Below are positions 15,794-40,621 of a stretch of DNA of 64,000 nt, piece after piece; position 1 is the first letter of the stretch, and each line of letters starts with the position of its first letter. Under the pieces are notes generated by a model. It had not been told where the DNA came from. It was given only the letters and a program-made list of their open reading frames with translations, and made no database searches. Made by a program: the position numbers and the translations under genes. Source of the DNA: Candidatus Thorarchaeota archaeon (lineage in GTDB: Archaea > Asgardarchaeota > Thorarchaeia > Thorarchaeales > Thorarchaeaceae); contig DXJO01000010.1 of the NCBI GenBank assembly GCA_019057475.1, positions 96,001 to 160,000 on the forward strand, given 5' to 3'.

Positions 15794-15826
15794 GGATCAT
15801 GTCTCCTGGTGTTGCATCGAGGTTTC

Positions 15827-22902: not shown

Positions 22903-24093
22903 TTGCGTGTTCTGGTGACAACTTCAACATTTCCGTTTGTAGGGCACGAGTATTGGGGCAATTTCGTAGAAGATCTAAATAAACGGATGGAGCAGCGGCA
23001 TGTAATCATCGGGACTGTAGTTCCGAAGTGTCGTTGCATAAAACGCTCGCAGAAGCACAGTCTTGGTACAATGGAGTTTGATTATTTCCTTCCTAGAAGC
23101 CTTCAGGTATTGGGTTGTCCTCCGGGACTAGAACACAACAGTAGGAGTATTCTTGGGAAGATACAGCTTCTATTCTATCTGTTATCCTTCACCCTGCATC
23201 TCTTTCTGGCCACGAAACGCCATAGACCTCATCTTATACATGCCAACTGGGCTATTCCCTCAGGACTAGTGTCTTGGATTGTGGGACGAATGACCCGAAC
23301 ACCTGTATTAGTCACTGTCCTTGGTGCTGACGTGTACCAGAAGGGATTTCGTAAACAGGTCATTAGGTTTGTTTTGGAACGTGTTGATCATGTCGTTGTG
23401 GTGAGCTCCCATGTCAAGCGATTACTTGTAGGATTCGCTAAACCGAAGAAACTGACAGTGATTCCAAATGCCATTGATGTACGTGCGATCATCTCTGCAA
23501 AGGAGAAGGCTAATCTACATGCAGTCAAGAAGCGGTTGGGCCTACGAGCCGATGATAGAACGGTTGTCACAGTTCGCCGCTTGGTGGTTGAGAAGCGGGT
23601 TCAGGACCTTGTTAAAGCAGCCGCACAAGTATTGCAGAGCATCAAAGGTGTTGTATTCCTGATTGGTGGATATGGACCTGAACTAGAGAGTCTTCGAGAA
23701 CTGACCAGGACATTGGATATAGAATCTAATGTTCGGTTCCTTGGTCCACTGTCTGAAGAAGAGAAGCTAGAGCTCCTTTCAATCGCTGACCTATGTGTAC
23801 AAACCTCTGTCCAAGAAGGGCTATCGCTCGCCCTCCTTGAATTCATGGCTTCAGGAGCTGTTGTGATTGCGTCTGCAGCGGCTGGTCAGAGCGATGTGAT
23901 TGAGGCTGGTGTAAATGGTCTGCTTTTTCCTGCAGCTGACACAGATGCTCTCGCAAATTGCATAGTGCAGGCTCTTCAGAACGATGAGTATCAAAATCTT
24001 GGTCCAGCTTCAAGGGAGTACGTGCTTGAGCATCATTCGTTTGAGGCTCAGGTTGAGAGATACATGAGTGTCTATCGGGAGTTTAGAACCTAG
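22903..24093 (+). CDS. GT4 glycosyltransferase
   Basis: HANWAIPSG, VIPNAID, VRRLVVEKR and EGLSLALLEFMASG. Confidence 0.9.
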   Translation: MRVLVTTSTFPFVGHEYWGNFVEDLNKRMEQRHVIIGTVVPKCRCIKRSQKHSLGTMEFDYFLPRSLQVLGCPPGLEHNSRSILGKIQLLFYLLSFTLHLFLATKRHRPHLIHANWAIPSGLVSWIVGRMTRTPVLVTVLGADVYQKGFRKQVIRFVLERVDHVVVVSSHVKRLLVGFAKPKKLTVIPNAIDVRAIISAKEKANLHAVKKRLGLRADDRTVVTVRRLVVEKRVQDLVKAAAQVLQSIKGVVFLIGGYGPELESLRELTRTLDIESNVRFLGPLSEEEKLELLSIADLCVQTSVQEGLSLALLEFMASGAVVIASAAAGQSDVIEAGVNGLLFPAADTDALANCIVQALQNDEYQNLGPASREYVLEHHSFEAQVERYMSVYREFRT

Positions 24094-24125
24094 TGTTCAT
24101 TGGGTTCAATATTGCAGCTTCCAAA

Positions 24126-24445
24126 CTACTTGGTTTTCGCTGCAACAATGTGAATTGAGTGGGGTGCCCACCTGAATCCAGACTGTGTGATTGTCACTGT
24201 CCCGAACATGCTAAGCTCCCTCCTTAAACTCTCGCATGTGAAACGCCAGTAGTCATCCGGCAGGTCGTGCAGCGGGTAGAAAAATGGGACACTCAACACT
24301 AAGTAGCCATTTGGTCGAAGTGCATCATGGATGTTCGCAATGGCATGTCGGTAGTCATACACATGTTCCAGTACATTGATTGCGATGATCACATCGCATT
24401 GGTTCTTGCAGTCCAGTTACATCTAGGACCTCACATCCTGGGTAT
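24126..24445 (-). pseudogene. 5'-truncated, frameshifted class I SAM methyltransferase
   Basis: DVIIAINVLEHV..LRPNGYLVLSVPFFYPLHDLPDDYWRFT; there is no SAM-binding N-terminus in frame. Confidence 0.75.
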
Positions 24446-24501
24446 GGTTTTATATCACGCTTTAAGTGATAGAATCTCAATGGAATTATTGGTGTTGAAG
24501 A

Positions 24502-25737
24502 GTGTTAGGAAAACAGCTGAGAATAGTAAACGTCATTCATCATCTCTCCCGTGGTGGGGGTGTCGCACTTCAGTCAGTGAACATGGCAGAGTCACTTAGA
24601 AATCTTGGTCACAAAGTTGCTTTTGTGACAACTAAAACAGGGGTGGCAGATCCCACAACTGATTTCCTACATGAAGAAATGCCTGTCACATATGTTTCCA
24701 AGATGGCCGGAGCCAATGTGCTAGTGCCCTTTCTTTTGAGCAGAGCATTATCCCGAAGAATCCACGAGCACGGCTGTGATGTAATTCAATCTTTTGACCC
24801 TCTAGTTGCGGCCTTGGCCGTGCTCCTGGAAAAAGATGCACAAAGAACAATTCCCTGTGTGATAAGACTTGGAACCAACTACCAAGCTCACTTCAAGTTC
24901 CAGTTTGCTCAGCCAACGACAGGGACTACACTGGATTTCATCAAGAACGCCACACGGCGCAGCGTCTATCTCTCTGCGCTAAGCATTGTGGAGAGAATGA
25001 CTCTTACAATGTCAGATGCAGTTGTTGCCAACTGTCAGTATCTTAGGGAGCTTTATGAGAGGCGTTTCCCAAAGCTAAAGAACATCACAGTTATCCCAAA
25101 CGGCGTTGATATACAGAAGTTTAATCCTACTGGGGTCAAACACCTCCTAATGTCTGACAGAATCTGGCTCCTCTACGTGGGACGCATCGAGAACCGCAAA
25201 GGCATTGACATACTCTTGCGAGCTATGCCGGCAATTCTGAAACGATATCCAAATGCAAGACTACTTCTTGTAGGGCGTGCTCCCCGGCCTTACTACCTTC
25301 AAAAGCTGAAATCGCTTGCACAGAATTTATCTTTGGAATCGAAAATACAATTCATAGGTGTCGTATCGAATGAAGATATCCCTCACTTGATGCGTGCAGT
25401 AGATGTTCTGGTGTTCCCTTCAACTACCAGGAGTGATGAGGTTGAGGGACTTCCCAATGTTATCCTTGAAGGAATGGCCTCTGGTCTTCCTGTCGTGGTC
25501 ACTAATGTGTGTGGAGTTCCCGAGGTTGTTGAGCATGGGAAGACCGGGATTCTAGTATCCCCTGGATCAACACAAGACTTGATTGATGGTGTAATTGCTC
25601 TTTTGGAATCCAAGCAGCTCAGATCAGAGCTTGGTGTACAAGGTAGGGATTTCATTATTCGTCATAATTCAACAGAGCGCACAGCTCGGGACTACATTGC
25701 TCTCTACGAAAAATTGATCGAGATTAAAGGCGAATAG
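24502..25737 (+). CDS. GT4 glycosyltransferase
   Basis: VIPNGVD, YVGRIENRKG and EGLPNVILEGMASGLPVV. Confidence 0.92.
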   Translation: MLGKQLRIVNVIHHLSRGGGVALQSVNMAESLRNLGHKVAFVTTKTGVADPTTDFLHEEMPVTYVSKMAGANVLVPFLLSRALSRRIHEHGCDVIQSFDPLVAALAVLLEKDAQRTIPCVIRLGTNYQAHFKFQFAQPTTGTTLDFIKNATRRSVYLSALSIVERMTLTMSDAVVANCQYLRELYERRFPKLKNITVIPNGVDIQKFNPTGVKHLLMSDRIWLLYVGRIENRKGIDILLRAMPAILKRYPNARLLLVGRAPRPYYLQKLKSLAQNLSLESKIQFIGVVSNEDIPHLMRAVDVLVFPSTTRSDEVEGLPNVILEGMASGLPVVVTNVCGVPEVVEHGKTGILVSPGSTQDLIDGVIALLESKQLRSELGVQGRDFIIRHNSTERTARDYIALYEKLIEIKGE

Positions 25738-25742
25738 ATCGG

Positions 25743-26891
25743 GTGTGTTTCTTGCAGAAGAAGAGAGTCTTGCATGTGTTTGGCCACCTTACTCAAGGAG
25801 GAATGGAAACATGGCTTCTTAGTGTGTACAACAGAATCAACCGGAGTGCTGTGGTATTCGACATAGTTGTATCAACTGATGAAGAGCACCCTCTCAACAA
25901 GCCATTCAGAGAGTTAGGAGCTCGCATCTTCCCAACTGCAAAGATCAGGTATCCCCTTCGATTCGTTCATAGGTTTCTTGGGGTCCTGAAAGAACATGGA
26001 CATTATGACTCGGTTCATAGCCATATAGGCGCATTGAGCGGCATTGTTGTCTTGCTCGCGGCCTTGATGGGCGTAAAACAAAGAATAGTGCATGCTCACT
26101 CTTCTTACGAAGAGAGATCCGTACCTTTGGTTTCGCGATTATATCCCGCAGTTTCACTGGTTTTAAAGCGGCTTATCAGGGCCTTTGCCACAAAGGGGCT
26201 TGCCGCATCCAGAGAGGCAGCGGAGTTCCTATACGGACCAGACTGGAATACCGATTCTCGATTTGCTGTGCTCTACTGTGGCATTGACCTAGACAGGTTT
26301 GAGCGAACCAGAAACGTAACTGAAACACGAAGAGCATTGGGAATACCATCTGGCGCCCGTGTTGTGGGTCATGTAGGAAGTTTCCGTACACCAAAGAATC
26401 ATGCCTTTCTTGTCAAGATTGCTCGCGAAGTAATACGTCGAGGGAATGACGTCTGGTTTCTGTTGGTAGGCGATGGAGAGCTGAGAACCGAGATTGAGCA
26501 TCTTGCGAAACGGCTTAAGGTGGATGATCGTCTGGTATTCACGGGAATGCGCCCAGACGTTCCTGATCTCCTTGCTGCGATGGATTGCTTTGTATTTCCA
26601 TCCCTCTATGAAGGTCTAGGTCTTGTCTTGCTTGAAGCTCAAGCCTCTGGACTGCCCTGTATTGTGAGCTTGAGAGTGCCCAACGAAGCTGATGTAGTTC
26701 ATAATCTTGTGACCCGCCTTGATCTTGAAGACGGCGTGGAAGTTTGGTCAAAGACGATAATTGATGCGCTAGAGAAACCAAGACTCTCCAGAGCGGATGC
26801 TCTTGTAATAATGCATGAAAGCGCAATGAACATAGAACACTCAGTACAAGCACTTGTAGACATCTACATTAATGAACCAGATGCAGGATAG
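25743..26891 (+). CDS. GT4 glycosyltransferase (EpsF/CapH-like)
   Basis: GGMETWLL, GHVGSFRTPKNH and FPSLYEGLGLVLLEAQASGLP. Confidence 0.92.
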   Translation: MCFLQKKRVLHVFGHLTQGGMETWLLSVYNRINRSAVVFDIVVSTDEEHPLNKPFRELGARIFPTAKIRYPLRFVHRFLGVLKEHGHYDSVHSHIGALSGIVVLLAALMGVKQRIVHAHSSYEERSVPLVSRLYPAVSLVLKRLIRAFATKGLAASREAAEFLYGPDWNTDSRFAVLYCGIDLDRFERTRNVTETRRALGIPSGARVVGHVGSFRTPKNHAFLVKIAREVIRRGNDVWFLLVGDGELRTEIEHLAKRLKVDDRLVFTGMRPDVPDLLAAMDCFVFPSLYEGLGLVLLEAQASGLPCIVSLRVPNEADVVHNLVTRLDLEDGVEVWSKTIIDALEKPRLSRADALVIMHESAMNIEHSVQALVDIYINEPDAG

Positions 26892-26969
26892 ACGGTTGCT
26901 ACCGCATGGTTTAATTTGCTAGCACGAATCGCTTGATATCTCTACTATACATATCACTCATTTCGCTGA

Positions 26970-27083
26970 ATGCGGCTTGTGGAACAACTCAAGTGCAAGG
27001 TCTTCATCGATGGCAGGCGTGTCTTTTCCAAGAAACCTATTACACAAGGGTTGACATATCGAACTGTTGGCACTTGCTACTAA
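26970..27083 (+). pseudogene. Orphan 3' tail of a UDP-glucose/GDP-mannose dehydrogenase
   Basis: KCKVFIDGRRVFSKKPITQGLTYRTVGTCY*, against KKKIFIDGRRAFVNDSMPSDVVYIAVG at the C-terminus of 34087-35415. Confidence 0.75.
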
Positions 27084-27169
27084 GAACACCAATAAAGAGG
27101 GGTTTCCTCGTAAACTACAAGAACACTGACCCTGTTTCGCTTCAGTAGCATATCCTTGGGTGATGAGTA

Positions 27170-27450
27170 ATGCAGAACGTCTTGGTTACCGGTGGAGAGG
27201 GAATGATTGGAAGTGCCATTAGAGCGCTTGGGGTCTACGAATCATGGGACATCGATAGCGAGCGTGATATTCGAAACATACCATTGCATGATGAAGTATA
27301 CGATGGCATAATTCACTTGGCGGCAAAGAGCAGAGTTGTTGATGGTTACTTCGAACCGTATGAAACATGGGACGTAAACACGCTAGGTACAATCAATGTA
27401 CTTGAGAAGGCTCGTATTGATGGGAGTTGGGTTATCAACGGCAGTTCATT
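27170..27450 (+). pseudogene. 5' fragment of an NAD-dependent epimerase
   Basis: VLVTGGEGMIG, IHLAA, VNTLGTINVLE and INGSS, after which homology stops before YxxxK. Confidence 0.8.
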
Positions 27451-27645
27451 AACAGCGGGTTACTGGTGCAGCCAGGTTCGAGTGACGAGATGGCATCATC
27501 GGTAGCAACATTAATCGACTCCTCCTCAATGCGAAGCGAACTTGGTGAGCGGGGACGTGAGTACGTTGTACAGAATAACTCCATGGAAGTCACAGCTAGG
27601 AAGTATCTGACACTGTATCAGATGCTTATTCGTGGTGATCGCTAA
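27451..27645 (+). pseudogene. 3' tail of a GT4, most similar to 24502-25737
   Basis: GLLVQPGS..RSELGERGR..NS.E.TAR.Y..LY..LI; 27/58 aa identical to the C-terminus of 24502-25737. Confidence 0.8.
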
Positions 27646-27736
27646 ATCATTTATTCTACGGCTCTTTCCGTCAGTATTTATGGGACTGTGATTGTACTCA
27701 GCTCAATACAATTGGAAATTAGCCGTTATTGTAGAG

Positions 27737-29473
27737 TCAATAGGCTATCACCATTAAATAATCCAGAATAATCTTGTCACCTACGTTACCAGTTATGCTA
27801 AACATGAAGTATCGTAGTAAGAACGGGTCATCTACTTCATATTCATAGATTAGAAACTCCTGCGATGTGTCTATACCTGATCGATTGAACCTTCTTACAT
27901 TCCATCCAGCTGAGAAGTCTCTCTTTACTGGATAGAGATTGATACCGAATTGTGCAAGGTTAGGTGAACATAATCTAATGCGTATGAATGCACCTCTACT
28001 CATATTGAGCCACATTACGAATCCGAAATTACAGAAATAGGACGGGTCATGATCGCTTGAGTTGTATGCCTCAGGGAGCGTGACAGCACTGAGGTATGAA
28101 TTATTCTGTATTGTTAGACTAACATATGGGGAGTCATATCCTCTGATTGAAAGAATGTCCTCCATATCATTGAAATATACATTTTGACTCACGAGAGGTC
28201 CAGTGCCAGTGAAGACACTTCTATTGACATATCTTTCGCCAATTGACCACGATAGTGGAAAGAGTATGAAGAACAGAATCGTTGCTGTCTTGATTGTCCT
28301 ATTATTTCCTGAATTCGATGTCAACCGAGCTATGTATGCAAGGGGTATCCAGCTTATTGGAAGCCAGTATCTCAGACCCGAGGCGGAGGAGGTGTTTGAA
28401 TATAAGAGCACATATATGGTAAAGAACAAGAGAAACCAGGCACTGACCTGTTTAATCTTGATTAGGTTTTGTTTTATGTTCTTAAGAGTTATTTGATTTC
28501 TTCGCAGATATAAGATAAGAATGAAAAAGCAAGCAGGCAGAATCCCAACCTTGATCATTCCCTTAATGACCTCTAGAATATATGCAACATTGGCCCATCT
28601 TATCTGAAGCTGAGCAAAGAGCTGGATAAAATCACCACTCTCGAATGCTGACATATATGATGCTGGAATCATATATTCAAAGGGGAGTAAACCACCGAAC
28701 ATCAGAACAGTAATCGCAGCAAGATAGATGACTGTTGTAGTGCAAAGAAACTTCTTGAATCTAGATCTAATAATGAAGAGGTATAGCAGTACTCCGAGAA
28801 TGTATGTTTCTCTACATAGAGCACTACATACAAGAGCGATAAAACTTGTGACTAAGTACCCCCTTTGATTATCTTTTAGATAGAGCTCAGTGTAACAAAG
28901 CGACAGTAAGAAGAAAAACAACCCTGTCATATCTGTTAATATATTGAACCAGTAATTCAGGAAATTATAGCTCATAACCACAAATAATGTGAAGAGATTT
29001 ATTTCGAATTCGTTATAATCATTGAATTTCAGGAGATCCCGCATAAGTATGACGCTTCCTAATGCAAACGTCAGATTGATCATACATGCCAGAATCGAGA
29101 TGTCAATGGGTACAACGTGATGTGTTAATGCAATTAGTAAAGGGTAGAATACGCGGATCCGTGCATAATACTCGCTGAGAAGATAGTCCTCTGTTCCAGT
29201 ACTCAGCCACTTCTCAAGCGATAGTGCGTAGAATTGATACGAGTCCACACTGTAACCATTAAGAAAGACTGTTCGTATTACGCCGAATGCAATCGATGTG
29301 AATATAGCCAATAATATGATTGGTTTTATGTTCTGCTGAATTAGATTAAAAGTCTTGACAGAGAATTCATCAATGCCTTTGTGCATTCTATGATACAATG
29401 TTCTTATTATTTTCAAGAAGCTTCTGAGAATTTCTTCCATTCTTTGAATCATGATCACCTGTCTGGAATGCAA
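27737..29473 (-). CDS. GT-C-like multi-pass membrane protein with an extracellular C-terminal domain
   Basis: SVDSYQF loop, RVFYPLL, NILTDM, CRETY and LRYWLP; the DNA is visibly AT-rich. Confidence 0.6.
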   Translation of the reverse strand: MHSRQVIMIQRMEEILRSFLKIIRTLYHRMHKGIDEFSVKTFNLIQQNIKPIILLAIFTSIAFGVIRTVFLNGYSVDSYQFYALSLEKWLSTGTEDYLLSEYYARIRVFYPLLIALTHHVVPIDISILACMINLTFALGSVILMRDLLKFNDYNEFEINLFTLFVVMSYNFLNYWFNILTDMTGLFFFLLSLCYTELYLKDNQRGYLVTSFIALVCSALCRETYILGVLLYLFIIRSRFKKFLCTTTVIYLAAITVLMFGGLLPFEYMIPASYMSAFESGDFIQLFAQLQIRWANVAYILEVIKGMIKVGILPACFFILILYLRRNQITLKNIKQNLIKIKQVSAWFLLFFTIYVLLYSNTSSASGLRYWLPISWIPLAYIARLTSNSGNNRTIKTATILFFILFPLSWSIGERYVNRSVFTGTGPLVSQNVYFNDMEDILSIRGYDSPYVSLTIQNNSYLSAVTLPEAYNSSDHDPSYFCNFGFVMWLNMSRGAFIRIRLCSPNLAQFGINLYPVKRDFSAGWNVRRFNRSGIDTSQEFLIYEYEVDDPFLLRYFMFSITGNVGDKIILDYLMVIAY

Positions 29474-29639
29474 ATACCAATCTTCTATGGTGAGGCTATT
29501 AGTAACATCACTCTAGGCTATTAGTCATATCAAAGTTCCTTCCATATATCTTAATGGGCAAATTGCTAATTCCTTGCACAATCTTGAATACCCACAATCG
29601 CCAATCGGATGACGAATCATCCAGAACAACATTTCTTGG

Positions 29640-30270
29640 AATCAATGTGACTCCAGAGTTTTCCTGTCAATATATGCTCGTTCTATGGGTTATCGTCATT
29701 CAGAAATAGAAAAGAGGTTTCATTTATCGGGAACTAATGAGATCCCAATGGTTCTCTCGCACCCAATTGGAAGAACAGTCCCTACGACAAATTAGGACAC
29801 TTTCAGTGTACTCCGCTACAGACGTACCCAATTACTCTTCACTGTTCAAGAAGAACGACATTGACCATAATATCACATCCTTTTCAGAATTCGGTTCTCT
29901 ACCCATACTGATTCGCAATTTAGTTAAGCAGCATTGTGGTGACCTCTTGACTTCAAACATGAGTAGCTTGTAATTCCCTTCTGAGAGAAGGAAGTTCGCA
30001 AAGGTGTATAGGCTAGTTGCATAGCCAACGAGTATTATCGGCTTGAACTTCTGAAGCGTGTCTGCAAACCCCCTCATCTTAATAATAGACCCGGGATACA
30101 CAGAGGAACTGATGGCAGAGCTCCTGCAGAAGGTGCAGGATTATTGCAAACCACTCGATGTCGTGTTAAAGCATGTTGATAAAATAAGGCCGGAGAAGTC
30201 TGGTAAGACTAGAATTGTCAAATCGCTACGCAGCTTGGAGGATATTCAACGCGCCGATTTTCATAACTAG
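29640..30270 (+). pseudogene. Collapsed phenylacetate-CoA-ligase-like (PaaK/CapK) gene with an inverted internal piece
   Basis: Plus strand N-term SQWFS..DVPNYSSLF..LPIL; minus strand FKPIILVGYATSLYTFANFL (29964-30080); plus strand C-term VDKIRPEKSGKTRIVKS. The 5' boundary is approximate. Confidence 0.8.
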
Positions 30271-30385
30271 TACCTGAACGCAAATCGTTCATGTTCGTCA
30301 ATTGATTGAGCAATCGTTATTAGTATGACGTAGTTTCAAATAGAGTCAGATGGCCAACCAGAGAAAGCCACCAAGTGTGTAGAGG

Positions 30386-31117
30386 ATGGAGTCTCGCTTC
30401 ATGAAACTCGTAGTTATGATTCCCGCTTACAATGAGGAGAAGACCGTAGGCAAAGTCATTGATGAGATACCAAGGAGAATTGAGGGCGTAGACATCATAG
30501 AGGTCCTAGTAATTGATGACGGGTCAGTAGACAACACTCGGCAGGTCGCAGAGATTGCTGGGGCGAATCTGGTCGTTTCACACAGCAATAATAAAGGCCT
30601 TGCAGCATCGTTTCGTACAGGTCTAAAGACTGCCCTAAGAATGAAGGCAGACATTATTGTAAATACTGATGCCGATTTGCAGTATGACCAAACCCAAATA
30701 CGCCAGCTGGTGCGTCCGATACTCTCCAATAAGGCGGATATGGTCTTGGGATCGAGATTCAAGGGTTACATTGAGGAGATGCCAACTCGGAAGAAACTCG
30801 GAAACATACTTGCAACTTTTGTCACAAGAATTCTTTCTGGTTTCAATACTAGCGATGCACAGAGTGGCTTCAGAGCTTTCACTAGAGAACTTGCCAGCAG
30901 CTTGAAGATAACCTCTACGAAGACCTATGTTCAAGAAACTATTGTCAGAGCCGCCCGGTGTGGATATAGAATAGTCGAAATACCCATTACGTTTCGCAAG
31001 AGATCCGGCCCTTCACGTCTGATCAAGAGCATCTGGGGGTACGCTCTTAGAGTGTTACCTGAGCTGATATCATGCTACATCGATACGTTTAGGGCGTGTA
31101 GACACTTAAACACTTGA
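30386..31117 (+). CDS. GT2 glycosyltransferase (DPM/DPG synthase-like)
   Basis: IPAYNEE, IDDGSVD, TDADLQY, GSRF and DAQSGFRA. Confidence 0.92.
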   Translation: MESRFMKLVVMIPAYNEEKTVGKVIDEIPRRIEGVDIIEVLVIDDGSVDNTRQVAEIAGANLVVSHSNNKGLAASFRTGLKTALRMKADIIVNTDADLQYDQTQIRQLVRPILSNKADMVLGSRFKGYIEEMPTRKKLGNILATFVTRILSGFNTSDAQSGFRAFTRELASSLKITSTKTYVQETIVRAARCGYRIVEIPITFRKRSGPSRLIKSIWGYALRVLPELISCYIDTFRACRHLNT

Positions 31118-31136
31118 ATAACCTTTCCAAAATGTA

Positions 31137-32198
31137 TCACGCCCCTGCCTGTGATTCAAAGAAAGATGTATGTGCACAATACCACTCTATCATCTCTGTG
31201 AGGCCTTCGCGAAGTGAAACTGTTGGTCTGTACCCTAACATTCGCTTGGCTTTGCTAATACTAGCAAAGGTTGTTTTCACATCGCCTGGTTGATCTGAAA
31301 GATACTCTATCTTTGCCTCCTTTCCCAGGATGTCTTCGATAGTCTTGATGAACTCGCTAAGCACAATAATCCTTGAGTTTCCCAAGTTGAAAATTTCATA
31401 CTCATAGGGGTTCTCAACAGCACCTTGGATTCCCTCGACGATATCTTGAACGTAGGTATAGTCACGAGAACTGTTTCCGTCACCATACTGTTGTATAGTT
31501 TCTCCTCGATAGATGCCATCGATGAACTTGAAGGGCGCCATATCTGGACGGCCACGAGGTCCATATACTGTGAAGAACCTTAGACATGATACTTGGATTC
31601 CGTACAGACTGTGGTACGCATGTGTGACTACCTCGGCAGCTTTCTTTGTCGCGGCATACGGCGAACATGGCGCATCAGTTAGGTCATCCTCCCTGAACGG
31701 GACTTCAGATCTGTTGCCATAAACAGATGAAGTGGATCCCAGTATGAACTTCTCCATGTCACACCTACACGCCCAGTTGATGAGCTTGGCAGTTCCGGTT
31801 ACGTTAACATCAGCATAGGGGCCTGGCTTGGTAATGCTATTCCTTACACCCACAAGAGCTGCAAGATGAACCACCGTATCTATTTGCCAAGTATCGGATA
31901 TTCTTTTCATTACTTCTGAGTCACGGATGTCGCCGCGAACAAGATGAAATGCTTTGTTCTCCAAGGCTGCACTCAGATTGTGCTCCTTCAGTTGTGGGTT
32001 GTAGTAGTCATTGAAATTGTCCAAGCCAACAACAATCTTTCCCAGTGAGAGAAGACGGTCCACAAGGTGACTGCCTATGAATCCGGCTGCCCCAGTTATG
32101 AGTATCGCATCATTCTTGGTCATTATGTATTCACTCGTTGATTCAGTTGAAGCCTTCCTAGAACGCGGCGTCTGATTATGCTGAGTCAGTGCGACCAC
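31137..32198 (-). CDS. UDP-glucuronate 4-epimerase-like SDR
   Basis: ITGAAGFIG, DNFNDYY, HLAALVGVR, PYAATKK, RFFTVYGPRGRPDMA and QPGDV; the start may be ATG 32123. Confidence 0.9.
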   Translation of the reverse strand: MVALTQHNQTPRSRKASTESTSEYIMTKNDAILITGAAGFIGSHLVDRLLSLGKIVVGLDNFNDYYNPQLKEHNLSAALENKAFHLVRGDIRDSEVMKRISDTWQIDTVVHLAALVGVRNSITKPGPYADVNVTGTAKLINWACRCDMEKFILGSTSSVYGNRSEVPFREDDLTDAPCSPYAATKKAAEVVTHAYHSLYGIQVSCLRFFTVYGPRGRPDMAPFKFIDGIYRGETIQQYGDGNSSRDYTYVQDIVEGIQGAVENPYEYEIFNLGNSRIIVLSEFIKTIEDILGKEAKIEYLSDQPGDVKTTFASISKAKRMLGYRPTVSLREGLTEMIEWYCAHTSFFESQAGA

Positions 32199-32534
32199 TT
32201 ACATTCTATTAATCCTTTCAGTGTGTAACACACTCTGAAGATAACAACTGTGGCTTGCCTAAGCTACCTCTCTTCAGTATTCACAGATCACTGGACGAAT
32301 TCAACTGGAACTGTAATGGTGATTGGTGTCCACGGGGATTGTTGAGAGCTCCGGATGCATGACGTAACAATCGAAAACGAGTCTAGGGTTACTGAACGCG
32401 GACTATTATTTCTCATTCGCCTCCAGGATGCGGTCCTTACGGCGTGCGAGAGTTTCTGACTGCTTGTTTCATTGAATCTGTTACATGTGTTAATTGACCC
32501 GGAAACCCAAGTATGGTGCAATCACCGCACGAGA

Positions 32535-33785
32535 TCAGCCATCATTCCCCTCGTTTCTCTCAGAGGACAACCATGAACATCTGGAGCCCGCCAATAGCAC
32601 CGCGATGTAGCCAAGAGTGATGATGAGCGCTTGGACAATCCTCATGTCCGTTTCAGACAGCACACCCCTGACGGTAGTGAAGACGTAGACTGAAACCGCC
32701 CAATTGCCCACGCTGTCTTGGGCGTACACATGAAGCAGATGTGGGCCGTTCTCCGAAGGTAGGGTGAGGTTGTAAGGCGCTACAAGGGTTATGTTCGTTC
32801 TCATATCCCACCGACATACTACCCGAAATAATCCACTGACATCGACGATCGACAAGTTAACCATTGTATCCGGATCGTGAGTTGTACCGTTGGCTGGGCT
32901 GTTCAGTGTGATGCTTGGCCCTGTGTCATCCACAGTGAATGTATAGGTCACGTGAGCTTGGTTCCCTGCCATATCCCATGCATAGACATCGATTGTGTGA
33001 AGACCGTCGCCCGCTGGCAAGGCCGTATCATATGGGCTGAGGAGGGTTGTATTGGTGTTTCCATCCCAACTTGATATGACTTCTGCAAGACCTAGCTGGT
33101 CCTCCACATTCAGATTTACTATGGTGCCAGACCTGTGAGCTGTGCTGCTTTGGGGGTTCGACAGGAATACTGTGGGACTGGTGTCATCTGTAACAAATCC
33201 GAATCTTTGGCCAGACCAATTTCCAGAGCCACCTTGGGCGTAGATGAAAAGCTCGTGTGGTCCATCGCCCACAGTCAGTTCGACATCGTAGGGGGCTGCG
33301 AGAGTATGAACTCCCCCAGTATCCCAATTGAATATGACTTGAACTACACCAGAAGCGTCGCTGACCTCAAGATCAATCATAATGCCCGAATGATGCATAC
33401 TGCCATTCTCTGGATAGACCAGCACGATGCTTGGGCCAGTTTCACTGGCAGAAACCGAGGATGTTTCTTCGCCACTGCCTATGGATTGATTCTGTTGGTT
33501 GGAGGTGGAAACATGGTCTTCAATGGGAGATGAGATACGGAAATCCCCTGCCTTTAAATCAGCATTCCTTCCGATTTGTGGGGGTGCTATCACCTGCAAT
33601 GCCATAGGTTCCTGGTGGATTGCACGCGTGTTTGAAGCTGGTGATTCCGAAGAAATACCACTCTCGTGCATTGTGGGAACCACGGAGTATGGAAGGGTAT
33701 AGGCGGAAGACAACGGGCAAAGAACCAAAGGCAATAGCAGAACAAGCATCCCAATCCCGGCGATTACTCTGGCGTTTGATGTCAA
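32535..33785 (-). CDS. Secreted, C-terminally anchored protein with three Ig-like repeats
   Basis: N-terminal signal peptide, three repeats of about 86 aa and a C-terminal TM helix. Confidence 0.75.
   Translation of the reverse strand: MTSNARVIAGIGMLVLLLPLVLCPLSSAYTLPYSVVPTMHESGISSESPASNTRAIHQEPMALQVIAPPQIGRNADLKAGDFRISSPIEDHVSTSNQQNQSIGSGEETSSVSASETGPSIVLVYPENGSMHHSGIMIDLEVSDASGVVQVIFNWDTGGVHTLAAPYDVELTVGDGPHELFIYAQGGSGNWSGQRFGFVTDDTSPTVFLSNPQSSTAHRSGTIVNLNVEDQLGLAEVISSWDGNTNTTLLSPYDTALPAGDGLHTIDVYAWDMAGNQAHVTYTFTVDDTGPSITLNSPANGTTHDPDTMVNLSIVDVSGLFRVVCRWDMRTNITLVAPYNLTLPSENGPHLLHVYAQDSVGNWAVSVYVFTTVRGVLSETDMRIVQALIITLGYIAVLLAGSRCSWLSSERNEGNDG
32670..33443 (-). repeat. Three tandem intragenic Ig-like repeats of about 258 bp (86 aa)
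   Basis: Consensus P.I.L..P.....H.SG..V.L.V.D..G...V...WD......L.APY...LP..DG.H.L.VYA.D..GN at aa 115-200, 201-286 and 287-372. Confidence 0.85.
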
Positions 33786-34086
33786 GCAGGCTTTACCTCC
33801 CGATTTGCCTTAAAAAAGGACTGCACAACTAAGAATCTTTCTGTATGCTGATTCGGGGAAGGCTGCTGGATTTGCCCGCAGCGCGGGTGTGGTCATGATT
33901 TCTTTTGTTCTGATGTGGGTTCGTGTAATCCTCTCTCGGACTGATGCGATTTCGTTCGGGTTTCCGATGGTCTTCCTCCACACTGACAATTAGGCCCAGT
34001 CATGCTTATATCTGGGTAAACTTCAGAAATGGACCGTACAAACGACACAGACTATGAGGACATAATCCCTTACTGAGGCGAATGGA

Positions 34087-35415
34087 ATGAAGGTCATGAT
34101 AATCGGAGCTGGTTATGTGGGACTTACGATGGGCGTGGTCCTTTCAGCCACACACGAAGTTACGCTCTTGGATGTCGATGAAGACAAGGTGAAAGCCATT
34201 AACGAAATGAAATCACCAATCCATGAAAAAGGCATGTCTGATCTACTCACCCGGGGCATTTCAGAAGGACGCCTGAGGGCAATGACGCCGGATGAGGTTC
34301 TGGGTCGTCATGATATTGTGCTCATATGCGTCGGGACACCATCATCCTCAGATGGATCAGTTGACCTGAGCTACGTTGAGAGTGCCGCCACCATGGTTTT
34401 AGAAAGAGCCAATGAAATCTTCTCCAAGTACTGCGTCATTGGAATCAAGAGTACAGTTCCTCCTGGGACCACAAGAAGACTTGTGCTTGAACCTCTGGAC
34501 CGGGATGGATTCACCCATAGGGCTGGAGCTGCTTTCAACCCCGAGTTTCTGAGAGAAGGGTCCGCGATTGAGGACGCACAAAAACCCGACCGCATTGTGA
34601 TAGGTGCAAGTGATGCGAAGGCGTCAGAACTGGTGAAGCGCATGTACGAGGAATGCTTGACTAGAAACAGTACGGCATTCGTAGAAACATCTCTGGAATC
34701 AGCTGAACTATGCAAGTATGTAAGCAACAGTTTTCTTGCCTTGAAAATCTCTTTTGCAAACGAGATTGCTAACATTGTGGAGAGAATCCCTAGCGCAAAC
34801 TTCGCAGAGGTAATGATGGGGGTTGGATTGGACAGCAGGATTGCGCCTAGTTTCTTTGGTGCCGGCGCTGGCTACGGCGGTTCATGTTTGCCAAAGGATC
34901 TATCCGAGCTAATCCACCTGGCTCAGCATGACTTGAGCGTCGAAACTCCAATTCTGAAGGCGACACAACGAATCAATTCAGAAAGACCCCGGAAACTTGT
35001 TGACATGCTATTGAGATGTATCCCTGATGTTCATGGTGTAAAGATTTCTGTGCTAGGCTTGGCTTTCAAGCCCGAAACAGACGACATCCGCGAGTCGCCC
35101 AGTCTGAGCGTGATAGAAATACTCCAGACTCTTGGGGCAAAGGTCTGGGTTCATGACCCACTTCTCAACGAGATGCAACTAGATGACGAATTCATGAACT
35201 CCGTTACAGCAGTTGATGATCTTGACATTTGTCTGATAAACGCCTCTGGGTGCATTTTGATGACGAACTGGGAGAATTATGCGAATACAGGATTGGACGG
35301 CTTGACAAGACTTATGAAGAAGAAGATTTTTATCGATGGTCGAAGAGCATTCGTGAACGACAGCATGCCATCTGATGTTGTCTACATTGCTGTGGGGAAA
35401 CATCCTGGTTCGTGA
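34087..35415 (+). CDS. ugd: UDP-glucose 6-dehydrogenase family
   Basis: GAGYVGL, CVGTP, KSTVPPGTT, NPEFLREG, GYGGSCLPKD and GLAFKPETDDIRESP. Confidence 0.95.
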   Translation: MKVMIIGAGYVGLTMGVVLSATHEVTLLDVDEDKVKAINEMKSPIHEKGMSDLLTRGISEGRLRAMTPDEVLGRHDIVLICVGTPSSSDGSVDLSYVESAATMVLERANEIFSKYCVIGIKSTVPPGTTRRLVLEPLDRDGFTHRAGAAFNPEFLREGSAIEDAQKPDRIVIGASDAKASELVKRMYEECLTRNSTAFVETSLESAELCKYVSNSFLALKISFANEIANIVERIPSANFAEVMMGVGLDSRIAPSFFGAGAGYGGSCLPKDLSELIHLAQHDLSVETPILKATQRINSERPRKLVDMLLRCIPDVHGVKISVLGLAFKPETDDIRESPSLSVIEILQTLGAKVWVHDPLLNEMQLDDEFMNSVTAVDDLDICLINASGCILMTNWENYANTGLDGLTRLMKKKIFIDGRRAFVNDSMPSDVVYIAVGKHPGS

Positions 35416-35444
35416 AATGACTTCAGAACCTCTTTACGTAGGAA

Positions 35445-36413
35445 GTGCAAACACTGAGGGCAATAATACCAGTCGCCGGGAATGGATTACGCTTACGTCC
35501 GATTACTGAGTTGAAACCGAAGGTCCTCATCGAGGTTGCAGGCCGACCTGTTCTGGACCATATCCTCCGGAATCTTGCGGAGAGTAAGATCGACGAACTG
35601 GTGCTTATTGTGGGGCCCATGAAGAAGTTGGTAAAGGAATGGGCTGAGAAACTGTACGGTGACAGGTTCGCCCTGCGATACGTGAAGCAGGATAAGCAGT
35701 TGGGCTTGGGGCATGCGATCTACTGTGCGAAGGACTTCCTCGAAGGCAATGTACTGATTACTCTGGGAGATGAGATATTCTCCAGAAGCTATTCCTCGAT
35801 AATTGTATCAATGGGCTCTAACAACGCCGACGCAGCAATAGGAATTAAGGAAGTTGATGACCACCGTCACTATGGTATGATTAGAGTTGACAAAGACAAC
35901 ATTGTCACTGAGATGGTGGAGAAGCCACTGGAGTTTGATGGACGACTGGCTATTGCCGGCGTCTACTACCTGAGTGAAGCGTCACAGTTGAAGAAGGCTC
36001 TGGAGCAGACAATGAAGAAACGTGGCGTCGGAGGCGAGTATCAGCTCACTGATGCCCTTCAACTCATGGTTGAAGGTGGTATTCGCTTTTCGACTATCTC
36101 GGTAGGAGAATGGTATGACTGTGGCCGCCTTGAAACTTTGATGTCTAGCAATCGTCGTCTTCTAGAGAGAAGCCATTACGTGGATGAATCCGCGTACATT
36201 CTGAACTCTGAGATAATCGAACCCTGTTACATTGGTCCGAACACGAGAGTAGTCAACTCAAAGATAGGCCCCAATGTGTCCATGGGTGCAGGGGCATCGC
36301 TCGAAAGCTGTACACTTCGGGATTCGGTGGTCGAAAGCGGCACAATTGGAGCTGGCTATAACATTCGACAGTGCATTTTGTCCGGTAGTAAACTCCTTGG
36401 GTCAAACAGCTAA
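35445..36413 (+). CDS. Sugar-1-phosphate nucleotidyltransferase (RmlA-long/AglF-like) with a short LbH tail
   Basis: PVAGNGLRLRPIT..PK, QLGLGHAI, MVEKP, EYQLTDA and WYDCG. Confidence 0.9.
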   Translation: MQTLRAIIPVAGNGLRLRPITELKPKVLIEVAGRPVLDHILRNLAESKIDELVLIVGPMKKLVKEWAEKLYGDRFALRYVKQDKQLGLGHAIYCAKDFLEGNVLITLGDEIFSRSYSSIIVSMGSNNADAAIGIKEVDDHRHYGMIRVDKDNIVTEMVEKPLEFDGRLAIAGVYYLSEASQLKKALEQTMKKRGVGGEYQLTDALQLMVEGGIRFSTISVGEWYDCGRLETLMSSNRRLLERSHYVDESAYILNSEIIEPCYIGPNTRVVNSKIGPNVSMGAGASLESCTLRDSVVESGTIGAGYNIRQCILSGSKLLGSNS

Positions 36414-36657
36414 CGAGTGTTCCTCATAGCAGGTCGCTGACATGGAACACACCCACAATGTTTGTTTTTCCTTTTACATTCAATGTCTATCCTTTTCATA
36501 CAATGAATTTCCTCACAAAGAAATGGAATTGACATCATCGTGAAATTCATGGGATATCTATCAATAAAGAAACTGGGAGCGGTAGAAAAGGCAGTTCATT
36601 CATGTTTTCGAAGAAGTCCCTAAGAGTTCAATTGCATGCATTTGCCATGAGATACGG

Positions 36658-37469
36658 GTGGTTGAACACATCCATCTTACAGCTGAACGGATAGCCAAGT
36701 ATGCCGCAGTCATTAGAAAGCACAAGCCACGTATTGTGGTATGCTATGCTTCATGTCTATACTTGTCTGCTGAATTCCTAAGAACTGAAAGCATAGAGAT
36801 TCCATGCCCACAGGGTGTTCAAAGCAGTGCTGAGATGCTTCATGACTGGCAACTGTCTGCAATAAGTGCACAGTTCGAGTGTCCGGTTATGACAGGTACG
36901 GATGTAGAGAGGTAGGCGACATTGTCCACGAGTGTTCAGCTCATGATGGACTACATATTTCGCAAGAACTGATGCACGTAGAAGTACTGAAGGATGGTGA
37001 ATCCACAGCCTATGGGGAAGAGGGTGATATAGTAATTACATCCTTCGCGAACTACGCTTTTCCATTCATTAGATGCCATATCGGAGATTTCGGTGTGCTC
37101 CTTGATCCCGATGATTCATGCACATGTGGAAGAAGTTTCATTAAGATGTCACCTAAGGTTGGACGAAGCACCGACATTTTTCACTTCGAAAACGGACTTA
37201 TTGTTCATGGTAAATTTTTCACCCATCTATTCTACGACGCTCTCTCAGTTCGTCAGTTTCAAGTAGTTCAGAAATCGTATTCTAAAATTGAAATTAGGAT
37301 TGTACCCTCAAACTCCCTAGATGATGTCTCAGTTGGTCCGATTACTGAGGTGACACGTCAGAGTGTAGGATTACCAATCGATGTGGACTTTGTATTCACT
37401 GACAGAATCAAACCATCTCCTACTGGGATGCATCGCTTTGCAGTTTCCGAAGTTAAGCCATTGTTATGA
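36658..37469 (+). pseudogene. 5'-truncated, frameshifted PaaK/CapK-like ligase
   Basis: KHKPRIVVCYASCL..SSAEML in one frame, shifting near 36885 to YDRYGCREVG..GDIVITSF.NYAFPFIR..GD..GR..QFQVVQ. Confidence 0.85.
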
Positions 37470-37562
37470 TCCCATTCGGGCGGCGAGTAGATAGTCATCT
37501 TTGGACATACAAATGCGGGGTCGTGCAGTATCACTCCAAATCGCCAATACTGGTTGCCAGAC

Positions 37563-39197
37563 TTAATGATTCTGTTGCAGGGGTTCATCACTTCCGGCGC
37601 TAGAATTCACAAGCGATAATACCATCCTCTCGTATTTCAAAATGGGGCCTATAGCGAGGTTTATCCCTCTCATGGCTCCTAACGCACCATCAAGAATTCT
37701 AATGTCCTGATCTCTCACTGCTCGAGTTAATGGCAACAGGGTCAAGTAGAAAAGAATGAACAATGAAAAACCTGCAATCACCGTTGCCACGTAGTGCATC
37801 TCAACCAGTTGGTTGAGCAGGAGTATCATCACTGCCGCGATGCCTGAGCTCAGATAGATTCTGCCCAAGCTCAGGAAATCATATTTCAAATGTAACTGCT
37901 GCTTGCCTTTCCAGAGTCCAACAATGCAGGCTAAGAGTGTGGATACAAAATGCGCGGCGATGAGACCTTGCCCTCCAGCTAGTGCCGTAGAAATGAATCC
38001 AAGAGGCAAGAAAGCTACCACGTAGACGACATAGAATAGCAATGTTAGGGTATTCTTCCCAACGCCGCTGAAGAAACTAGTCAAGACACCATTCCCAAGT
38101 CCTACAAGTAGGAACACGCTGGAGAAAAGGGTCAAATACATTGATGCTGTAGCATATTCGCTTCCGTACAGAAGAAGTATGATCTCTTGGGACATAATCA
38201 TGAATATGGTTGCTGCAGGAACGATTACTAACGCGACATAGCGATGAGCCATTGCGAAGGCGCGACTGATGTCGGAATCTCCTGACAATGTACTGACTCT
38301 CGAGAAAGCTGGGAGCAACGCAATAAAGAGAGGAGCGGAAACAGCTCGTAGCAAAGTGGAGATGTTTACTGCAACACTGAAGTTTCCCACATCAACATCA
38401 GAGCTGAATGCTGCCAGAAGTACAAGCCTATATTGAATGGCAAAAGCTGCGATAATGGTTACGGCGTAAAGCGGAAGACCAAAGATCATAATCAATTTCG
38501 TATAGTATGTCTTGTTTCGCCCTTTGAAATTCACTTCTCCGTATTTCTGGAGTTCCTTCGCAAGCAAAGCTATAGAAATCACTCCTGTGACAACATAGGA
38601 AAGAACGAATCCAGATATGGCTCCAAACATCTCTAGACCAATAAGTATTAAGAAAACGGACATGCCTGCTTTCATGGATGCTTGGAAGATTCTGATGAAC
38701 CCACTCCATGAGGGTTTGTCCAGGCTCTGGAGTGCAAAGAACGCCACCCAGAATAAACCCTCGAATGCAACAGCAATGCATGAGAATGCTATGTATGGAG
38801 CTAGTGATGGCCTACCAAGTACAGCTTCTGCAAACAGGCCAGACAGTAGGAATCCTGTGATAGAAACAAAGGCAACGATAAGCAGCCTTAGAAGGAGTCC
38901 CACTCTGAGGGTCCTTAGCGCTTCCTTGTCATTTCCTTCTGCACGCATCTTTGGAACATATCTGACTAGTGCGATATCTATTCCAAAGATCGAGAACGAG
39001 AATAATAGTGAGGGCAGGACAAGTGCCAGACTATACTGAGCATATAGAACTGGGCCAAGCAGTCTTCCAACTAGTATTGTGCCTATCCCGTTGACAATGG
39101 TAGCCGTAACCATACCAAGCACAAGGGAAGTTGCGCCTCTAATCGAATCCTCTGCAAGGTCGGTTAGATTCTCGTTCGTTGGATTTACCGCACTCAC
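37563..39197 (-). CDS. Wzx-type oligosaccharide flippase
   Basis: About 14 TM; GRLLGPVLYAQY, ALVRY, LLPAFS and LLYGSEY. Confidence 0.88.
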   Translation of the reverse strand: MSAVNPTNENLTDLAEDSIRGATSLVLGMVTATIVNGIGTILVGRLLGPVLYAQYSLALVLPSLLFSFSIFGIDIALVRYVPKMRAEGNDKEALRTLRVGLLLRLLIVAFVSITGFLLSGLFAEAVLGRPSLAPYIAFSCIAVAFEGLFWVAFFALQSLDKPSWSGFIRIFQASMKAGMSVFLILIGLEMFGAISGFVLSYVVTGVISIALLAKELQKYGEVNFKGRNKTYYTKLIMIFGLPLYAVTIIAAFAIQYRLVLLAAFSSDVDVGNFSVAVNISTLLRAVSAPLFIALLPAFSRVSTLSGDSDISRAFAMAHRYVALVIVPAATIFMIMSQEIILLLYGSEYATASMYLTLFSSVFLLVGLGNGVLTSFFSGVGKNTLTLLFYVVYVVAFLPLGFISTALAGGQGLIAAHFVSTLLACIVGLWKGKQQLHLKYDFLSLGRIYLSSGIAAVMILLLNQLVEMHYVATVIAGFSLFILFYLTLLPLTRAVRDQDIRILDGALGAMRGINLAIGPILKYERMVLSLVNSSAGSDEPLQQNH

Positions 39198-39423
39198 ATC
39201 TCCATTTCTAGTCTTAAGCCGCAGCTCGGTTTCTTGCTGGTTCAGCTCTCCTCCTTATTATGATTACCTCGCAAGTCAATCTAATGCTACCGAAACATAC
39301 TTCTGACAAGGAGGTGCGGAACCTGAAATGCCACTGTTCAACGGGCATGTGCAATCCTACTGAACACTCTCCATCCTCCACACAACTCAGGTTCTGTGCA
39401 AACATGACCCTGGAAAAGGGCTT

Positions 39424-39561
39424 CTGCTTCCTGAGCTACAAATTAGGGAGTATGTGATAGTGCATTTGGCCTATGCCATCGAGAAGATGAAGTCAATGGA
39501 AGCCAAGAAGACACTAGCACTCTTTGAAGAGATGGCGAAGTTCGCAGAAGAAACTGAATAG
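39424..39561 (+). pseudogene. hypC: Orphan 3' half of a second, diverged hypC
   Basis: LLPELQIREYVIVHLAYAIEKMKSMEAKKTLALFEEMAKFAEETE*; 29/45 aa identical to HypC at 3385-3525, with no MC N-terminus. Confidence 0.92.
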
Positions 39562-39618
39562 ACCTGGAGTTTGATTGTAGAAAATGGGCAGATGGATCTT
39601 TGGAGAATAATTCATTAG

Positions 39619-40119
39619 ATGAAGCCAATGGTGGAGGTCATGCGACGATTTCGTCCAGAGCTGCTCAAAGGACTCACTGTACTTTGCATCTTCTTTACCG
39701 TGATAGTTTCCACAGAACTACTCCTGCCTTATCCAATTGAACATGCCCGATACACGTCTATTGACATCAGGAAAATCATCCAGAATCCCATTCCCTTTGA
39801 AGGACATGAGATATCGTCGGCTGCAACAGTTTCTACAGTTATCACCAATGAGTCATTTTCTATAGCTGAGGTCGCGGAAGGAGTCATACTAGTTTTCTCT
39901 TCTTCAGTTGGTCATCCAAGAGAAGGCGACAGAGTCATGTTCCGCGGCACTTCCTGGATTCATTTGAACAACTCAATTCTGGTACACGAGTTCTACACGC
40001 TAGACTACAACAGCTCGTTAATTCGCTCCATTCCTGGAATCCTCTTGTTCTTGGTGATGTTTTTCACAGTCTTCACGATAGACCTCAATCGTCTGGCATT
40101 TGTGACCCGGAGGCGCTGA
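39619..40119 (+). CDS. Hypothetical membrane protein (two TM helices flanking a possible OB-fold domain)
   Basis: N- and C-terminal TM helices; IIQNPIPFEGHEI..GDRVMFRG pattern. Confidence 0.55.
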   Translation: MKPMVEVMRRFRPELLKGLTVLCIFFTVIVSTELLLPYPIEHARYTSIDIRKIIQNPIPFEGHEISSAATVSTVITNESFSIAEVAEGVILVFSSSVGHPREGDRVMFRGTSWIHLNNSILVHEFYTLDYNSSLIRSIPGILLFLVMFFTVFTIDLNRLAFVTRRR

Positions 40120-40120
40120 A

Positions 40121-40621
40121 ATGCCGGACGTGTTTACGCACTTCCTAGTCGGTGTGTCAATTGCACTACTTGTGCGCAAAGACGGCAGCAGGGCAGAACG
40201 GATGCTGATAATCTTAGGTGCGGTCTTGATAGATATTGAACGCCCATTCTCATGGTTACTCGCAAGTACTGAGTTCTATTGGATTGGACTGACCCCAGCG
40301 TTTCACTCCATATTAGGGGCTGTTTTCCTCTCCTACTCTGCAGCTGCCTGTTTCGATTTGGAGCACACCACTTTCAGGGAGCGGGTCAAGCTGATTCTCA
40401 TTGGTTGCACAGTTCATCTCCTACTGGACATGACAATGTATCCCTGGGAGGAGCGTGGCCTCTATCTTCTTTATCCTCTCAAAATCACGTTTTCATTCAA
40501 TCTTCTTTGGCCAGACTTCTGGTGGCTTCCTGTGTTTGGTATAGCGAGTCTTCTTGTTGCCTTGGGCATTAGATACCTGATGACTCTCACTCAGTCAAGT
40601 AAGGCAGAACGCGATTCGTAG
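40121..40621 (+). CDS. Membrane-bound metal-dependent hydrolase (YdjM-like)
   Basis: MPDVFTH, LIDIE, FHSI, HLLLD and LLYP. Confidence 0.8.
   Translation: MPDVFTHFLVGVSIALLVRKDGSRAERMLIILGAVLIDIERPFSWLLASTEFYWIGLTPAFHSILGAVFLSYSAAACFDLEHTTFRERVKLILIGCTVHLLLDMTMYPWEERGLYLLYPLKITFSFNLLWPDFWWLPVFGIASLLVALGIRYLMTLTQSSKAERDS

Follow-up and report, generated by a model that had tools for sequence, protein, structure and literature searches.

A truncated hypC remnant as the probable scar of a former gene adjacency in a glycan locus of a Thorarchaeota archaeon

Within a cluster of glycan-biosynthesis genes, the genome of an Asgard archaeon of the Thorarchaeota (G000, a 3.34-Mb MAG) carries a 5'-truncated pseudogene fragment of hypC, a hydrogenase-maturation gene, followed by two genes for membrane proteins, here named X and Y. 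The fragment occupies positions 39424..39561, on the forward strand, of the 64-kb stretch of DNA that was analysed (G000:C42:96001-160000, hereafter the window) and consists of codons 32-77 plus the stop. It is very probably the scar of an arrangement in which X-Y once followed a hypC gene, a core that is common to the two histories weighed below, import of donor DNA and displacement in place. That it entered G000 with imported donor DNA is close to an even call.

Two hypC signals only were found in the G000 genome, and the intact gene (3292..3525, forward strand) is the sole full-length match; its 77-aa product begins with MCLAVPG and aligns with positions 1-65 of 65 of profile PF01455 (91.4 bits, E 4e-26). 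The other signal lies in an open frame at 39364-39561, of which the last 45 codons (39424-39558) are HypC-like. A preliminary description of this DNA had reported a 45-codon frame 29/45 identical to HypC and lacking its N-terminal Cys, and BLASTP and profile searches agree: the frame aligns without gaps to residues 32-76 of intact HypC (29/45 identical, 36/45 positive, BLASTP E 7e-19) and matches Pfam HupF_HypC (PF01455) at profile positions 32-65 of 65 only (29.5 bits, E 8e-7). With a nucleotide profile made from 14 hypC genes, 13 from relatives plus the window's own intact copy, the alignment was confined to 39423-39559 (E 7.5e-28), which covers the gene from nt 93 onwards. The nhmmer envelope began at 39413 and the alignment itself at 39423. 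The abrupt start of homology at a 10-mer identical in both copies, noticed earlier, is confirmed.

The sequence upstream of the fragment showed no hypC homology by nucleotide or protein profile. It forms a spacer (39198..39423), located upstream of the start of the flippase gene Wzx2, whose right end is the truncation junction and which could not be aligned with the regions upstream of X in two contigs of another genome, G045:C219 or C247. Because the profile alignment begins only at gene nt 93 and nothing precedes it, the truncation is a true one: the fragment is a clean 5' truncation at codon 31/32. A decayed or frameshifted full-length copy, for which an ATGTGC at 39347 served as lead, was discarded since the nucleotide profile is blank there. 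An assembly artefact was likewise rejected as the source of the fragment, as the same tail precedes X in the independent assembly G045:C219.

The N-terminal Cys of the HypC/HupF/HybG proteins is essential. The fragment, which begins at codon 32, is missing the Met-Cys motif of HypC (MC[LIV][AG][LIV]P), and the sequence HTGYAIE, invariant in 21 family and order relatives, reads HLAYAIE in it (Thr-Gly replaced by Leu-Ala), a sign of relaxed constraint. Judged by the features of the HypC/HupF/HybG family, it thus has neither the Met-Cys start, nor a full-length profile match, nor the HTGYAIE core. Genes for hypD, hypF and the [NiFe]-hydrogenase large subunit are present in G000 at five sites distributed over contigs C29 and C6, which indicates that the intact hypC is a working gene. 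Hydrogenase maturation would not be affected by the fragment, since the intact hypC remains, and the value of the fragment is that of a historical marker. Two of the large-subunit matches, at C29:56017 and C29:65354, score identically and are separated by 9.3 kb, a hint that the hydrogenase locus has been duplicated.

The intact gene is of the type of its genus. A second genome of the same genus, G005, is 95% identical in nucleotides to it through codon 51, agreeing at 92/93 nt before the junction and at 56/60 after it, compared with 40/60 for the fragment; this near-equal match on both sides means that there is no step at the proposed crossover core. Separate tests on the 5' and 3' halves of the intact gene gave little signal (Spearman -0.03; best triplet p 0.0017, uncorrected for 190 pairs), and as a test of chimerism they are underpowered.

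The two hypC copies of G000 are 69% identical at the nucleotide level, with pS 0.73 and pN 0.19 (Nei-Gojobori, 39 codons), while pairs of functional hypC genes in the family have pS 0.6-1.0 and pN mostly 0.10-0.16, up to 0.26. Synonymous saturation together with low pN indicates that the copies derive from different lineages, and saturation also means that they are not two halves of one recently split gene. Since the excess of pN is small, the parent of the fragment would have been under selection for almost all of this divergence and inactivated recently. By these values the parent was a selected hypC gene, about as far from the resident copy as hypC genes of different genera are from each other. 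The best database matches of the fragment are HypC proteins of Thorarchaeota (73-79% identical; resident copy 64%), and when the 45-aa fragment was used as protein query no near-identical parent, hypC', and no match above 79% came up.

Behind the fragment, after a spacer (39562..39639, forward strand), which shares 67/78 nt with G045:C219, comes X (39640..40119, forward strand; atlas feature score 0.96), coding for a two-TM membrane protein. X had been called at 39619; alignment to L055 and L084 places the conserved start at the ATG of 39640. X had no Pfam match and is possibly of the OB_2TM_halo type (PF26045), which is a lead only. Y (40121..40621, forward strand) encodes a YdjM-family inner membrane protein (PF04307, E 6e-12). 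The two co-oriented genes that had been described after the remnant are therefore confirmed, with the start of X moved from 39619 to 39640.

Homologues of X-Y were found in 16 of 86 family genomes, and Y lies behind X in every relative whose contig reaches beyond X. X-Y stands directly after an intact hypC in G012, G046, G049, G050 (genus g7) and on G045:C102 (g11). A probable sixth case is G076 (g5), where the gene next to hypC matches X only weakly (25%) and precedes Y and an NTP transferase gene. Elsewhere X-Y follows the NTP transferase gene (G063, G070, G056), GT4d (G011 and G099) or two dehydrogenase-like genes (G020). The order hypC-X-Y-NTP transferase is still intact in several Thorarchaeota genera. 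The preliminary description had called for a search for relatives in which hypC directly precedes X-Y homologues, and at least five related genomes, with G076 as probable sixth, show this order. Both adjacencies on which it had staked its reading, hypC beside X-Y homologues and hypC beside glycan loci, occur in nature.

The closest relatives of the block are on two contigs, G045:C219 and C247, assigned to genus g11 by binning alone in a MAG with 7% contamination. On C219, X and Y are 86-88% identical in amino acids to those of the window. At the nucleotide level the hypC tail agrees at 53/62 positions, the spacer at 67/78, X at 420/480 and Y at 449/501, and the four form one inherited block shared at 85-90% nt. 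Together with the hypC-X-Y order of relatives, this block upholds the earlier proposal that the membrane genes were previous neighbours of hypC. The homology with C219 starts inside the fragment, at 39500, with a different gene upstream of that point, and that with C247 starts exactly at the X start codon, 39640. The tail before X therefore measures 138 nt in G000, about 60 nt on C219 and none on C247, which indicates that a stable X-Y block has been eroded progressively, in nested steps, from its left side. The tail motif EEMA reads KETA on C219 (F-K-E-T-A vs F-E-E-M-A in the window), so that the tail is not under protein-level selection; tail and spacer diverge by about 14-15% between G000 and C219, and X and Y by 10-12.5%. 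Loss of function may be placed roughly on the scale of the G000-C219 split, given that tail plus spacer differ by ~14%. C219 is a densely scarred contig, on which a duplicated Y tail (L084 4834-5002, 87% to window 40506-40674) and a GT4h fragment were also observed.

In the X tree, most hypC-adjacent X genes group, with two g12 copies that are not hypC-adjacent, apart from the displaced X genes (support 87/87, modest); the hypC-adjacent X of G050 falls outside the main group on a long branch, and the tree leaves the event undated. When metagenomes were scanned with X, three contigs matched, and on none of them does an uncut hypC' precede X. On one metagenome contig, L063 (Ga0114919_10270027), X'-Y' (87.6% nt) is joined directly to the conserved right-flank gene of the locus, a convergent 499-aa gene that comes ~110 nt after Y' (L063 996-1199 / L099 764-2263) and that in G000 lies 24 kb further on, at C42:160764-162263. 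At least one near relative therefore has X'-Y' on the right-hand border of the locus.

The intact hypC is followed by a conserved glycan module (3608..18974) of NTP transferase, GT2, GT87, GT4a, GT4b, Wzx1 and GT4d genes, which contains genome-specific insertions. The same order after hypC is present in G011, G099, G014, G019, G018, G013, G009, G024 and G023. The usual family order is OTCase-like, radical SAM, hypC, NTP transferase, GT2, GT87, GT4a, GT4b, Wzx, GT4d, found in most family genomes and in one order-level outgroup, and hypC borders the glycan cluster throughout the family. Window positions 1-17966, through Wzx1, are common to five same-genus MAGs at 88-96% nt, and same-genus genomes also share the sequence from window coordinate ~64783 onward. 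Between these shared flanks, DNA searches found nothing of ~17967-64782 in the five same-genus genomes, and searches of the genus with 38000-41300 and 20001-60000 gave nothing useful. Among the genomes searched, ~17967-64782 is therefore specific to G000; it holds a second glycan module, the fragment, X-Y and a further 24 kb. All relatives compared are MAGs, and those of the same genus are fragmented (52-92% complete), with contigs broken off where the variable region begins or ends, which makes the failure to find X-Y in the genus weak evidence. At 12531/12532, identity to G005:C63 steps from 90% (9050-12532) to 96% (12531-16092), which looks like a recombination boundary between GT4b and GT4c.

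The second module (18975..39197) comprises PMT_2-like, GT4, GT2, epimerase, UDP-glucose dehydrogenase, NTP transferase 2 and Wzx2 genes, the last on the minus strand; it had no match in the five same-genus genomes, and its GC content drops from ~0.50 to 0.39-0.47. Every Pfam-positive ORF of 3608-39197 belongs to glycan biosynthesis or related families: GT2, GT4, GT87, PMT_2-like, epimerases, UDP-glucose dehydrogenase, two nucleotidyltransferases, two Wzx-type flippases, GH130 and a CBS protein. Three ORFs (27737-29473, 36658-36915 and 36879-37469) had no Pfam match. Glycan genes resume downstream of X-Y, with a GT4 at 41215, an epimerase at 42447 and others, which places the fragment within the cluster instead of on its border.

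Other remnants in the family suggest that hypC is a recurrent breakpoint, as border or anchor of a recombining glycan locus. In a census of the 86 family genomes with PF01455, extra hypC matches turned up in G000 and G045; a further 48 genomes possess the gene, with one match apiece, full length in 45 of the 48. An independent frameshifted hypC fragment (codons 17-57; 62% nt identical to that of G000) lies beside an epimerase gene at 7479-7590 of G045:C219 (L084). In G071, a hypC pseudogene at 2548-2728 of C33 (L102), beside the radical SAM gene, has lost the Met-Cys start (ATGTGT changed to ATATAT) and continues into unrelated sequence after codon ~55; no other hypC was found in this genome, which is 90% complete. 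Two contigs from different genera, G005:C174 and G051:C390, both end at hypC codon 51, a shared stop that could, speculatively, reflect strain-level branching, and G005:C72 and G006:C116 terminate where the variable region meets its flanks. The borders of the hypC-glycan locus thus seem to be places where assemblies break, and this tendency of MAG contigs is a warning for annotators.

Smaller scars are present in the window as well. Between the epimerase gene (4782-5696) and GT2, positions 5707-5778 preserve the final ~22 codons of an NTP transferase gene as a remnant (SESWIPVNDLKG...). It is 73% identical in nucleotides to the intact tail, while the overlapping region of the intact gene is genus-native (90% to G001), and from these two values the remnant is the outsider copy. 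This scar has the same design as that of hypC, NTP transferase-GT2 being the usual adjacency in the family. A 288-nt copy of the UDP-glucose dehydrogenase tail and NTP transferase 2 head is found at 22549-22831, in the gap upstream of the GT4 at 22903 (73% identical to 35290-35573), and a 136-nt direct repeat of 89% identity (49645-49780 and 59216-59351) flanks ~9.5 kb. Just after NTP transferase 2, a 36-nt sequence (36438-36473) matches, at 89%, the end of G006:C116, the border of the right-flank gene, and may be another small scar derived from the flank.

Homology-facilitated illegitimate recombination (HFIR) combines homology on one side with an illegitimate join on the other (PMC3240628), and the fragment has the marks that such an event, or a displacement, would leave: a truncated, co-oriented copy of the border gene, two copies from different lineages, and the natural downstream neighbours still attached. 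In the reading we prefer, to which we give roughly an even chance, a second hypC' of another lineage once stood directly upstream of X-Y, and linear hypC'-X'-Y' DNA of this relative would have entered the glycan cluster of the G000 lineage. On the right, homologous recombination would have taken place in or beyond X-Y or in the conserved right flank; on the left, an illegitimate join would have cut the donor hypC at codon 31/32. The process would thus be HFIR in the course of an exchange of glycan-gene modules, after which the hypC tail would have travelled and decayed with the spacer, X and Y as a block, with the resident hypC at 3292 untouched and presumably doing the work, and the fragment doing nothing. 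Import is favoured because both the left module and the intact hypC are typical of the genus and the fragment stands inside a genome-specific stretch, because the closest X'-Y' genes are on contigs of a genome binned to g11 that has its own distant hypC-X-Y on C102, and because the remnant in the smaller NTP transferase scar is the foreign copy. Against it, X'-Y' lies beside the right-flank gene on L063 and might be native backbone, in which case the fragment may be an old hypC tail native to this lineage.

Displacement in place, a described model (PMC5361080), is the chief alternative, and a rather unlikely one. An ancestor with the order radical SAM-hypC'-X'-Y'-right flank would have received hypC-NTP transferase DNA, without an integrase, through homologous entry within the 5' part of hypC, or upstream of it, and an illegitimate join at hypC' codon 31/32, so that the native hypC' tail and X-Y were pushed downstream. 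The succession of intact gene, insert, co-oriented truncated tail and former neighbours is exactly what this model would give, hypC-X-Y and hypC-NTP transferase are both found in the family as parental orders, and X'-Y' looks like backbone on L063, where it abuts the genus-conserved right-flank gene. G071 offers the mirror image, a hypC 5' fragment beside radical SAM with the 3' end replaced, and the ends of the G005 and G051 contigs at codon 51 fall in the same gene. Yet the intact hypC matches G005 equally well across the junction and the left module is genus-wide at 88-96%, so that the displacement would have to predate the genus, in whose six other genomes X-Y was not found. Moreover, the intact hypC shows no significant chimerism over the 190 pairs, and in the analogous NTP transferase scar it is the remnant, not the tail of the intact gene, that is foreign. 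Both the mechanism of recombination and its direction, that is, which copy is native, are inferred from sequence comparisons.

A single island inserted into hypC at 3395-39423, as first proposed, is very improbable. It would be a site-specific element of the e14/icd type, bringing a replacement 3' end for hypC, integrated at CTGCTTCCTG and excisable. The architecture does mirror icd, e14 and the icdC pseudogene (PMC13626634), and the 10-mer occurs exactly at the start of homology in both copies. However, its first 14.5 kb are the family- and genus-conserved neighbourhood of hypC; this synteny between hypC and NTP transferase does not in itself speak against insertion, since a same-family donor would carry it too, but the proposed ends differ from those of the variable region (~17967-64782), and the empty-site pattern of the same-genus genomes does not fit 3395-39423. 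No PF00589 tyrosine recombinase was found on the 472-kb contig C42 (eight matches lie elsewhere in the genome), no tRNA within the 64-kb window and no other mobility gene among the ORFs scanned at 3608-39197. G045:C219 and C247 show erosion of the tail and no fixed att site, and excision would yield a damaged HypC, invariant residues being changed in the fragment. The idea of hypC as an insertion anchor holds in so far as the gene borders a recombining glycan locus in which breakpoints recur; the single 36-kb island does not.

The 10-mer itself encodes Leu-Leu-Pro, codons 32-34, in the intact gene (copy 1 at 3385..3394, forward strand), and CTGCTTCCTG has exactly two sites in the window, 3385 and 39424 (expected 0.22; 2/100 shuffles reach two). 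As evidence for a crossover core it is weak, because it encodes conserved amino acids and because the two hypC copies share a second exact run of similar length, the 11-mer AAGAAGACACT; chance or microhomology would be compatible with it. A plain family consensus would be too simple an account of it: the residues are conserved, but among the hypC genes of 21 relatives the exact 10-mer is found in G005 (same genus) alone, which favours an island. Three synonymous positions match at the edge of homology, at each of which the profile consensus carries the same base, and given synonymous saturation an exact 10-mer at this place is mildly unexpected. No parental sequences were found for the junction, whether an uncut hypC'-X' or an uninterrupted Wzx2 upstream region.

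Local tandem duplication of a segment that begins within hypC, with subsequent deletions and a second copy decaying neutrally, could turn hypC-X-Y-cluster into hypC-cluster-fragment-X-Y with no foreign DNA, and other direct repeats do occur in the window. It has little to recommend it all the same, since neutral decay to pS 0.73 would nearly saturate pN, observed at 0.19 with the frame open, and a foreign allele would have had to replace the intact copy afterwards. Least credible is a fragment kept for a function, as a small protein (a 35-aa GTG ORF called by the gene finder) or as a leader or promoter for X-Y. In its favour, 65 codons of the frame are open, a gene-call cluster (P0002) exists, and tail and spacer were kept in two lineages. 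Against this, EEMA has become KETA on G045:C219, tail and spacer diverge at least as fast as X and Y, G045:C247 keeps X-Y with neither tail nor spacer, and the region had no meaningful Rfam match.

HFIR is also the model proposed for the orphan 3' ends at Rhs/CDI loci and in the T6SS immunity arrays of Vibrio cholerae (PMC5361080). As in those systems, a conserved gene borders a variable region and offers a one-sided homology anchor, and co-oriented, truncated 3' pieces of the anchor gene lie downstream, with repeated events leaving nested scars. Here, in contrast, the anchor is a housekeeping hydrogenase-maturation gene, the cargo consists of glycan genes and the host is an Asgard archaeon. 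We know of no functional link between hypC and the glycan-biosynthesis cargo, nor of any demonstration in Asgard archaea of a mechanism of the HFIR type, which is inferred here.

According to a report that cites Hill et al. (PMC13626634), the intact icd gene of E. coli K-12 runs into the e14 insert, and a C-terminal pseudogene fragment, icdC, lies at its far end. The likeness is that of an intact gene with a C-terminal fragment of the same gene, in direct orientation, at the far end. Unlike e14, which has an integrase and excises, the stretch described here has no recombinase and is mostly conserved local synteny, and the tails of icd and icdC are nearly identical, whereas the hypC copies share 69% of their nucleotides.

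Bacterial O-antigen and capsule loci contain gene remnants and undergo exchange through conserved flanking genes. The Thorarchaeota locus resembles them as a mosaic cluster of sugar genes with GC shifts, split glycosyltransferases and fragments of flank genes; it differs in being archaeal and in its conserved flank, radical SAM-hypC instead of galF/gnd or dexB/aliA. The fragment indicates that glycan modules of these Asgard archaea are exchanged between lineages diverged to synonymous saturation, with no recognisable mobile-element machinery, and together with the other scars it offers a handle on how cell-surface diversity arises in an uncultured archaeal group. Tentatively, radical SAM-hypC might be the fixed left anchor of a hypervariable Thorarchaeota surface-glycan locus whose modules are swapped between genera by recombination that is homologous on one side and illegitimate on the other, with repeated breaks inside hypC and other conserved genes, the fragment being the outermost of the nested scars. 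If this were true, gene flow between genera of Asgard archaea could be read from the tail scars. The scar is ordinary in kind, and a clear archaeal example of module exchange that forms scars.

Two further elements were observed to the left of the intact hypC. A VapB-like/PIN (VapC-like) gene pair and a 190-nt repeat, together at 2206-3235, are missing in G005, in which the radical SAM gene directly abuts the region upstream of hypC; this segment is an insertion in G000 immediately beside hypC. The repeat, a ~190-nt element at 3050-3240 between the PIN gene and hypC, matched no RNA family in Rfam, as was also the case for the hypC fragment. It has 13 copies in G000 (79-90% identity) and many more in every same-genus genome searched, and its ~65-nt core (3174-3240) recurs at 73-79% in other genera. 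The element could be MITE-like, or else a conserved signal of intergenic regions.
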